Virus record (IMG/VR): IMGVR_UViG_2541047722_000009
Direction: 5' to 3' (one strand)
DNA length: 23,233 bases
Source of the DNA: a virus
Taxonomy: Duplodnaviria; Heunggongvirae; Uroviricota; Caudoviricetes
Under the pieces are notes generated by a model that was not told where the DNA came from, did no database searches, and saw nothing but the letters and a program-made list of their open reading frames with translations. The first letter of the stretch is position 1. Each line of letters begins with the position of its first letter. This document shows positions 16,093 through 16,797 of this stretch, piece by piece. A program made the translations under genes and the position numbers.

Positions 16093-16310
16093 CTCACAAT
16101 TCAGGCGGTTGACTGTTGTCTGGTTTGCGGGGAGTTTGTTAAAAGAAACTGGCATGGTGAATCCCCCTGTGCGGAGGGGCAATCAGCGAGTAGGTATATG
16201 GGATAATCGCGGATTCAGGTGCTGGTACTGAATTCACCGGGAGGCACCCGGCACCATGCAATGGCACATAGCGCCACTCTCCAGCCCCTCTCCGGAGGGG
16301 CTTTTCTGTG
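16093..16310 (+). repeat. Structured non-coding module, copy 1 (conserved hairpins plus strong intrinsic terminator)
   Basis: Shares ordered conserved blocks with copy 2: CTCACAATTCAG, GTTGAC, TTTGTTAAAA, GCATGGTGAATCCCCCTGnGCGGAGGGGC, (G/T)ATAAT, TCACCGGGAGGCACCCGGCACCATG, and terminator CCCCTC-TCCG-GAGGGG + U-tract (16285-16307). Confidence 0.6.
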
Positions 16311-16560
16311 CCGGATACATCACAGTTTCTGGAACCTTAGGTACTACAGTATCAGTCAGGGTGCTATATTTTCAGATGTGATGAAAGCCTGTCAGCAGGC
16401 AGGGCGTATCGGAAATGACCCAGTAGAGAAAACGTTGACTCAGATACCGGTGCTGAGTTACCGGGAAACCGGCATCACATGACCGCTATCCTTCCAGGCC
16501 CATCCGCTCCGGTGGGCCTTTTTACTGCAGAAAACAGGTTCCCCGTTAAATGCTATGTTG

Positions 16561-16797
16561 CTCACAATTCAGTAAGTTGACAGTTGCCTGTCAGACTGGG
16601 CATTTGTTAAAAAAATTTCGCATGGTGAATCCCCCTGAGCGGAGGGGCGACTGGTGACGGTATAATCTCTGATTATCAAAACGAGAATGACGCGGGTTTA
16701 GTGGCACCGGGCTGAACTCACCGGGAGGCACCCGGCACCATGTGCATGATGATACAGATACGCGGCTTTAGCCCCTCTCCGGAGGGGTTTTCTTGTG
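16561..16797 (+). repeat. Structured non-coding module, copy 2
   Basis: Same block order as copy 1. Terminator at 16772-16794. Sequence between blocks is divergent and no conserved ORF is present. Confidence 0.6.

Follow-up and report, generated by a model that had tools for sequence, protein, structure and literature searches.

The bacteriophage record IMGVR_UViG_2541047722_000009 (Caudoviricetes; IMG/VR database), a stretch of 23,233 nucleotides (nt) referred to here as the window, carries a set of repeated modules at positions 16,093 to 16,797, between a cluster of transfer RNA (tRNA) genes and the lysis genes. This region is very probably a tandem array of three paralogous small-RNA (sRNA) genes of the STnc100/PasD family, situated at the moron site of the late operon of a lambdoid prophage and operating by the mechanism proposed below. 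Two of the genes are canonical (16093-16306 and 16561-16794) and the third is diverged (16362-16524). The array lies between the Q gene with its late promoter and terminator (PR' and tR'), the methylase gene, and the tRNA genes on one side and the holin and lysozyme genes on the other, with a known convergent sRNA on the opposite strand.

The repeat modules are copies of STnc100

A first-pass annotation of this DNA had described two direct repeats of ~230 nt, at 16093-16310 and 16561-16797, that share an ordered set of blocks, and both a repeat finder and matches to the Rfam family RF02076 bear this out. The repeat finder recovered an 88-nt block (16093-16180 and 16561-16648, 80% identical), a 31-nt block (16228-16258 and 16712-16742, 97% identical), and a terminator block (16283-16310 and 16770-16797, 89% identical), with a spacing of 468-484 nt between the two modules, as well as a weaker third copy of the terminator-like repeat at 16500-16527. 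The hairpin AUCCCCCUG(U/A)GCGGAGGGG and the block CACCGGGAGGCACCCGGCACCAUG are found in both modules. The whole window was scanned at the Rfam gathering threshold, which for RF02076 (STnc100) is a score of 47 bits. Copy 1 (16123-16313, plus strand) matched this family with 136.3 bits (E 2.6e-30) and copy 2 (16591-16800, plus strand) with 161 bits (E 1.2e-36), in both cases over positions 1-206 of the 206-position model. Because of these E-values, chance is excluded as an explanation for the repeats. The other matches in the scan were sok, DicF (4537-4588, minus strand), and three tRNAs. R1, a covariance model that we made for the 5' domain with 19 IMG/VR sequences, gave 116.6 bits for copy 1 and 106.6 bits for copy 2. 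Both modules belong to STnc100, a family that Rfam already includes and whose small-RNA genes are found in lambdoid and Shiga toxin (Stx) prophages. The parts of the array are as follows.

16152-16259, plus strand: 5' structured domain of STnc100 copy 1, with helices P1-P5 (RF02076, R1, fold, and covariation)
16260-16306, plus strand: variable linker of copy 1 (16260-16282) and its intrinsic terminator (stem 16283-16302, then UUUUC)
16362-16524, plus strand: third, diverged STnc100-like gene, with an extended -10 element TGC-TATATT (16362-16370), a domain at 16376-16480, and a CU-rich linker
16496-16519, plus strand: terminator stem of the third gene, followed by U5
16620-16794, plus strand: STnc100 copy 2, with domain (16620-16743), linker (16744-16769), and terminator (stem 16770-16789, then UUUUCUU)

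The first-pass annotation had matched the modules to no known phage sRNA; the full-length STnc100 matches of both copies overturn that statement. RF02076 covers all of the blocks listed there except CTCACAATTCAG/GTTGAC, which is a conserved upstream element throughout the family, and by the annotation's own measure, an Rfam match that accounts for the blocks, the modules are not novel. The suggestion that they are paralogous small-RNA genes fared better: in each, a structured body stands between promoter-like elements and an intrinsic terminator, and the homologues are documented transcripts. The feature is therefore real and far beyond chance, but both the family and the type of locus are already known.

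A third copy completes the array

The modules had been described as a pair. Both copies are real, but the array has three units, with a diverged copy at 16376-16524 filling the divergent sequence between the two modules. With RF02076 at a permissive threshold this copy was detected at 16352-16525 with 30.1 bits (E 2.9e-4), below the gathering score, and with R1, whose source sequences did not include it, at 16376-16480 with 36.8 bits (E 4.6e-7). Its P1 helix, AUGUGAUG/CAUCACAU in place of GCAUGGUG/CACCAUGC, contains four compensatory base-pair changes in eight pairs, and its extended -10 element sits ~6 nt ahead of this helix. Given their sub-gathering scores, the middle copy and a further copy in the dicB leader, described below, are distant relatives of STnc100 and not formal members of RF02076.

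Both the middle unit and the whole three-unit array recur in IMG/VR contigs, which were searched with a two-block pattern. At least one match to 16093-16800 is present in 2868 of 5426 complete Escherichia coli genomes, 345 of which carry at least 80% of the array. Matches were also found in 354 of 50,697 phage records, mostly Stx-converting phages, with at least 80% of the array in five of these. A 15-base pattern, GCATGGTGAATCCNCC, run across 596 Gb of genome contigs gave only chance matches in unrelated phyla, the pattern being too short. Two other IMG/VR loci contain arrays: L128 (2326-3350, minus strand) has four tandem STnc100-type domains, and in L181 (1392-1785, plus strand) two copies lie directly next to each other at a distance of 267 nt. 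Therefore, the size and composition of the arrays vary between phages.

The 5' domain is a conserved multi-helix fold

In the consensus architecture of the 5' domain, which spans ~105-125 nt, helices P2, P3 (which is variable), P4, and P5 emanate from a junction closed by P1. Covariation across the family, a check proposed in the first-pass annotation, was assessed for four helices in a model-guided alignment of 40 matches (37 distinct sequences). In this alignment, which was fitted to the model and so favours structure, 97.1% of cells are paired and 21 of the 26 pairs have changes on both sides (85 cells among the 37 distinct sequences). The covariation score is 0.341, compared with 0.02-0.08 when the 3' partners are slid by 1-3 columns, and none of 500 shuffles matched the observed covariation values; in the slid-partner controls 33-47% of cells are paired. 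The changes in P1 of the middle and dicB-leader copies are independent of the seed alignment. For copy 1, the minimum-free-energy fold is the consensus fold (z = -2.83), and the middle copy folds into the same architecture (z = -2.67). For copy 2, the canonical fold (-62.3 kcal/mol) hardly differs in energy from the minimum-free-energy fold, an alternative at -62.6 kcal/mol in which the 3' arm of P2 (GGAGGGGC) pairs with the 5' arm of the terminator, a pairing that is limited to the CCCCUCUCC-type terminator. The 5' domain is thus a multi-helix fold supported by covariation.

The alignment dissolves one of the blocks that the modules had been said to share, a (G/T)ATAAT element. The GAUAAU of copy 1 aligns with GAGAAU in copy 2, and the UAUAAU of copy 2 aligns with UAUAUG in copy 1. 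Both motifs fall within the variable P3 helix, and the motif in copy 2 is the 5' arm of a local hairpin. We considered these motifs as promoters and rejected them: their positions are not homologous, they lack a usable -35 element, and they are not conserved across the family.

The same data bear on whether the repeats could be remnants of duplicated coding sequence or could encode a small, near-leaderless peptide (MVNPP...) from an ATG in P1. The copies do have ATG-GTG-AAT-CCC-CCT in common at the 5' end of the domain, some copies in strain EDL933 have ribosome footprints with ribosomal coverage values of up to 3.2, and RefSeq places a pseudogene fragment on the strand opposite copy 1. However, coverage among the EDL933 copies ranges from 0.04 to 3.2, and the sole shared ATG opens frames whose length ranges from 5 codons to more than 56, with frameshifts and no conserved stop, in agreement with the earlier observation that no open reading frame (ORF) is conserved. 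In the middle and dicB-leader copies the frame ends after one or two codons (AUG UGA and AUG CGG UGA), and substitutions in the stems are compensatory rather than synonymous. A conserved MVNPP... mini-ORF was rejected for its variable frame length and lack of a conserved stop, and we give a coding origin of the repeats almost no credence.

Linkers and terminators are exchanged between domains

A terminator scan of 14000-17600 identified 16 terminator-like sites, compared with 3.3 expected, and these include all three array terminators (stems 16283-16302, 16496-16519, and 16770-16789), each followed by a U-run. The linkers in the array are CAAUGGCACAUAGCGCCACUCUCCAG, GACCGCUAUCCUUCCAG, and UGCAUGAUGAUACAGAUACGCGGCUUUAG; that of copy 1 is CU-rich (CACUCUCC) and is a candidate seed. 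Among the 135 instances of the element from IMG/VR, we distinguished 20 types of domain and 20 of tail, with the domain type of copy 1 joined to seven unrelated tails and the tail of copy 1 (type T2) joined to three domain types. The junction between domain and tail is the 3' strand of P1. The conserved blocks and variable spacers noted in the first-pass annotation therefore reflect the variable internal helix P3 and a recombining cassette of seed and terminator.

In PasD, the seed UGUGAG lies in the linker just 5' of the terminator, as does the Hfq peak detected by crosslinking and analysis of cDNA (CRAC) in EcOnc13, the homologue of PasD in enterohaemorrhagic E. coli (EHEC). Because both map to the same cassette, we infer by analogy that the linkers in the array contain the seeds. 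The UGUGAG seed itself is present in none of the three array linkers.

Upstream regions and 5' ends

The two canonical copies have similar upstream regions with the following elements.

16093-16151, plus strand: copy 1 upstream region, with CTCACAATTCAG at 16093-16104 and GTTGAC at 16108-16113
16116-16121 and 16137-16145, plus strand: copy 1 -35-like TTGTCT and, after an 18-nt spacer, extended -10-like TGT-TAAAAG
16561-16619, plus strand: copy 2 upstream region, with CTCACAATTCAG at 16561-16572 and GTTGAC at 16576-16581
16584-16589 and 16605-16613, plus strand: copy 2 -35-like TTGCCT and extended -10-like TGT-TAAAAA

This pattern of blocks is kept in ~50 distinct upstream sequences from IMG/VR, among which the spacer and discriminator vary. 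For copy 1, the upstream region may function as promoter DNA, or a longer form of the transcript may include it as a 5' leader. In an alignment with PasD1 and PasD2, the mapped start of PasD corresponds to the G of GCAUGGUG, and the implied starts are therefore 16152 and 16620. If this proximal start is accepted, positions 1-29 of the Rfam model would be promoter DNA. Most upstream variants also have a -10-like hexamer, often with TG ahead of it, 6 nt before the A of CACAATT. This distal hexamer is TAAATG in copy 1 and TATGTT in copy 2, and TAAATT, TACATA, or CACGTT elsewhere. A distal start near 16097 or 16566 is therefore possible, as the Hfq-CRAC peak and Northern bands of EcOnc27 (see below) also suggest, in which case the module boundaries drawn in the first-pass annotation would equal the boundaries of the RNAs. 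Two candidate helices in the upstream block, CTCACAATTCAG...GTTGTCTG, showed no convincing covariation among 22 distinct leaders: 83.8% of cells are paired in one, compared with 81.1% in shuffles, and 76.4% in the other, compared with 76.1%. This result fits either promoter DNA or a single-stranded RNA leader and does not decide between them.

Expression of homologues and proposed mechanism

STnc100 is a multi-copy prophage sRNA with 11 copies in EDL933, of which 10 have hundreds to thousands of transcriptome reads and one has been confirmed by Northern blot (PMC5331693). STnc100_1 to STnc100_11 have 327-6373 reads, and STnc100_11 has reads without ribosome footprints (PMC5331693). One STnc100 copy lies 75 nt downstream of stx2B (PMC12370729), and STnc100 overlaps the Hfq-binding sRNA EcOnc27/sRNA103 of EHEC (PMC12711010; PMC7873438). 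EcOnc27 binds Hfq and gives Northern bands of ~235 and ~247 nt; the probe used for it is the reverse complement of one of the 3' tails of the STnc100 family. PasD1 and PasD2 of enteropathogenic E. coli (EPEC) are structurally homologous to STnc100 (Zhu, Shabalina and Storz 2026; Pearl Mizrahi et al. 2021). They were found by the ligation and sequencing of interacting RNAs (RIL-seq) on Hfq, and are 172-173 nt long by RNA sequencing and Northern blot. Homologues of STnc100 are thus discrete, Hfq-associated transcripts (PMC4104026, PMC8550237, PMC5331693). Published work has also found members of the family to be expressed in lysogens.

We propose that each gene in the array starts from a sigma-70-type promoter region of its own and encodes a conserved multi-helix 5' domain, followed by a short unconserved linker and an intrinsic terminator. 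In the lysogen, each gene would be transcribed separately and transcription would stop at the gene's own hairpin, giving an Hfq-associated RNA of ~150-230 nt that would act in trans by base pairing. The conserved domain would serve as a stable scaffold and the exchangeable linker, perhaps together with the variable segment of the 5' leader, as the seed that determines specificity; the three copies would address different targets. After induction, Q-modified RNA polymerase starting at PR' would pass all of the array terminators and continue into the lysis genes. This model is based on the observed family identity, fold, context, and mosaicism of the tails; homologues suggest the expression and Hfq binding, and the seed, the targets, and the exact 5' ends are our proposals.

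Expression of the array RNAs as discrete, Hfq-associated transcripts is predicted from homologues in other strains. Several points weigh against the model. The EcOnc27 Hfq-CRAC peak (Sakai 1268411-1268490) extends from about -40 to +40 around the G of GCAUGGUG, making the 5' end ambiguous, and the EcOnc27 Northern bands are 60-75 nt longer than the 171 nt expected from the proximal start. The proximal -10 candidates, TAAAAG and TAAAAA, lack the conserved final T and were not called by a promoter scan. The U-tails in the array are short and interrupted (UUUUC and UUUUCUU), which is not ideal for Hfq, and under the activating condition PasD1 and PasD2 change little in a Δhfq strain, with log2 fold changes of -0.18 and 0.55. 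No STnc100 member has a validated direct target; sRNA103 influences fimZ and espA. Finally, the conserved loops of the 5' domain and its occurrence in the dicB leader suggest that the domain has a function of its own, which the idea of a scaffold does not explain.

A related domain in the dicB leader

A fourth instance of the domain is found elsewhere in the window.

4391-4516, minus strand: STnc100-type domain in the dicF-dicB spacer (dicB leader); 48.4 bits with R1 (E 9e-10)

This domain scores 37.7 bits with RF02076 (E 1.2e-6), below the gathering score of 47, and is located after the DicF terminator and ahead of the dicB start codon. Its P1 (AUGCGGUG/CACCGCAU), P4, and P5 (CCUGG/CCAGG) helices contain compensatory changes, and flanking sequence lengthens P1 to ~21 base pairs, which would make this helix a plausible substrate for RNase III. 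The same element is present in Qin, a prophage of E. coli K-12 MG1655 (NC_000913 1649455-1649580; positions 856-981 of our locus L246), with 45.6 bits (E 3e-10). A recent study of dicBF regulation does not mention the domain. The dicBF transcript has a known RNase III site, but we rejected the idea that this structure represents it, as the published site is upstream of DicF.

The most serious alternative to sRNAs with exchangeable seeds is that the conserved 5' domain is itself the functional part, for example by acting as a decoy for a protein such as CsrA or ProQ, by stabilising the RNA with a nuclease-resistant 5' end, or by providing a signal for processing, with tails that are only spacers and an array that raises dosage. 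It is the most serious because the domain also occurs outside sRNA genes: the same fold, with compensatory changes, is in the dicF-dicB spacer of both this prophage and K-12 Qin. In addition, conservation is much stronger in the domain, loops as well as stems, than in the tails; a GGA motif is present on the 5' side of the P5 loop in all four instances in the window (GGGAGG, GGGAAA, and UGGAAG); and the abundance of PasD under the activating condition is largely independent of Hfq. Against it, the targets of PasD share a motif complementary to the PasD linker and Hfq crosslinks map to that linker, as fits base-pairing sRNAs, and no protein that binds the domain is known. A role as a scaffold and a function of its own would also be compatible with one another. 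On balance we regard this alternative as unlikely.

A broader possibility, which we put forward tentatively and hold to be less probable than not, is that the 5' domain moves among lambdoid phages as an RNA module in its own right and is more than the body of a single sRNA family. It would form the 5' end of Hfq-associated sRNAs, with exchangeable seed and terminator cassettes recombined onto it, occur in arrays of two to four, and also appear directly after DicF in the leader of dicB, a cell-division inhibitor gene, including in K-12. If so, the domain would have a specific function, such as binding a protein, protecting the RNA from 5'-end-dependent decay, or acting as a processing signal.

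Genomic context of the array

The window is 100% identical to sequence in the chromosomes of E. coli ATCC 11775, NU14, UM146, and other extraintestinal pathogenic strains. In RefSeq, the gene order at the identical ATCC 11775 locus is RusA, an antitermination protein (13305-14126), a small ORF, a DNA methyltransferase (14699-15748), tRNA-Ile/Arg/Arg, the position of the array, a DUF1737 pseudogene, holin, YdfR, a frameshifted lysozyme, Rz, and terminase. The sRNAs are unannotated there, the pseudogene fragment opposite copy 1 being the only call. Two further elements flank the array.

14132-14230, plus strand: PR' (late promoter) and tR' (terminator), immediately following Q
16801-16994, minus strand: convergent sRNA gene, with terminator at 16829-16808 and promoter-like site ATGCCA-17-GATAAT

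PR' consists of TTGATT (14132-14137), a 16-nt spacer, and TAAATT (14154-14159), followed by TGCTCT and AACGAT (14166-14171). We take AACGAT to be a -10-like pause element as in lambda PR', where it is at the same distance. The strong terminator tR' has its stem at 14209-14224 and a T-run that extends to 14230. Together, PR' and tR' predict a short transcript of ~65 nt, analogous to lambda 6S RNA or StxS. The modules themselves were considered as a 6S/StxS-like PR'/tR' unit, which was rejected: that unit is at 14132-14230 and the modules start 1.9 kb downstream.

The position of PR' bears on a proposal in the first-pass annotation that the modules are promoter-leader-attenuator units, which would act in cis to control read-through into the late and lysis genes. 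Each unit does place a terminator upstream of the lysis cassette, and the pairing of the P2 3' arm with the terminator of copy 2, isoenergetic with the canonical fold, is the only structural point in favour of attenuation. However, the late promoter and its qut-like pause element are 2 kb upstream, directly after Q, and unrelated linkers and terminators follow the same domain, so that no antiterminator pairing is conserved. Moreover, copy 1 and the middle copy precede another sRNA gene, copy 2 precedes the convergent sRNA and the DUF1737 pseudogene, and homologues accumulate as discrete, terminated RNAs. We therefore consider attenuation highly improbable and favour trans-acting sRNA genes.

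The minus-strand sequence at 16801-16982/16994 is 95% identical to the EPEC sRNA E2348C_1409.E2348C_1408.IGR, a homologue of EHEC EcOnc08/21/42, and the terminators of this minus-strand gene and of copy 2 adjoin. Rfam gave only weak, sub-threshold matches to this sRNA (OmrA-B, 25 bits), probably driven by the terminator, and AsxR and AgvB were not matched. Tree et al. (2014) reported that, in at least eight prophages of Sakai, the moron site downstream of PR' carries convergent sRNAs bound by Hfq (PMC4104026). These "convergent sRNA dyads" sit between PR' and the lysis genes (PMC4104026).

Other features of the window were noted in passing. The tRNA at 15798-15873 (plus strand), which opens an Ile/Arg/Arg cluster typical of Stx-like phages, is called Met (anticodon CAT) by ARAGORN and tRNA-Ile by RefSeq, and is presumably of the lysidine-modified ileZ type. 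Downstream of the array, a 13-nt sequence at 17402-17414 (plus strand), AACTCACCGGTAG, is one base away from the P4/P5 junction of STnc100, and a strong plus-strand terminator at 17452-17480 is found just ahead of the holin gene. The region 17402-17480 could represent the decayed remains of a further copy or a different sRNA; R1 gave no match in it. A 29-nt direct repeat at 17252-17280 and 17327-17355 (plus strand, 79% identical) contains AGAAAGTCTGGCGCTGGAGATAAATGCA, which resembles the reported target site of EPEC PasA in the homologous ORFs E2348C_0688 and E2348C_1246. Published Northern probes for PasA, PasB, and PasC had no match in the window with up to three mismatches, and BLAST against the EPEC PasA locus found no PasA segment in it. 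The annotation of the identical RefSeq locus has a frameshift in the lysozyme gene rrrQ (18427-18960 region; 11678-12212 of our locus L001) and treats DUF1737 as a pseudogene, and the prophage may be lysis-defective yet retain its sRNA genes. In the early-right region, a sok antisense RNA (11103-11277, plus strand; RF01794, 113 bits) lies with the hokD toxin gene as a type I toxin-antitoxin pair.

Significance and comparison with known systems

As a discovery the element carries little weight, being a curated Rfam family in a type of locus described in 2014, and what we add is incremental: the tandem triple array, the mosaic architecture, and the relative in the dicB leader. These genes are missing from RefSeq, which has either no call or a spurious 'hypothetical protein' beneath the matches. 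The conserved domain with swapped tails provides a concrete, testable model of how phage sRNA specificity diversifies, and the dicB-leader domain of K-12 offers an easy genetic system for probing the function of the domain.

The closest known system is STnc100 itself (EcOnc27/sRNA103), with which the array shares a full-length model match, the same fold, the type of terminator, the position in the locus, and a convergent sRNA partner. That position, for which Sakai Sp5 was used as a comparison, has PR' (or a moron gene) on one side and the lysis genes on the other. Published accounts present the copies as dispersed, with one in each prophage; in the array, three members are in tandem within 700 nt. 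The 3' tails of the array are also unlike that of EcOnc27, no stx operon lies upstream, and the array directly follows the tRNA cluster.

PasD of EPEC E2348/69 (EcOnc13 in EHEC) has a homologous 5' domain and proximal promoter, a position in the late region, and a linker followed by a terminator. The PasD loci score 37.2 bits with R1 and fall below the gathering score of RF02076. They differ from the array in lacking most of P5 and the upstream CTCACAATTCAG/GTTGAC block, and in having a longer linker that carries UGUGAG. A common ancestry of PasD and STnc100 has been proposed, and the pasD copies are at least 74 kb apart, so that none is in tandem (Zhu et al. 2026, bioRxiv 10.64898/2026.05.13.724894). 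Contrary to this current statement for the related Pas sRNAs, the array shows family members in tandem.

Lambda 6S RNA (~200 nt in lambda) and StxS resemble the array RNAs as short, terminated transcripts from the late region of lambdoid phages. They differ in being encoded directly after Q, with Q-utilisation and pause elements that are absent from the modules, 2 kb downstream. OmrA/OmrB, PrrF1/PrrF2, and the Qrr sRNAs are, like the array genes, adjacent paralogues that each have their own promoter and terminator and combine conserved and variable parts. This parallel is also drawn in the discussion of Zhu et al. Unlike the array genes, they belong to the chromosomal core, and their regulators and targets are known. 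In the array, by comparison, the conserved part is a large structured domain and the variable part is shuffled by phage recombination.

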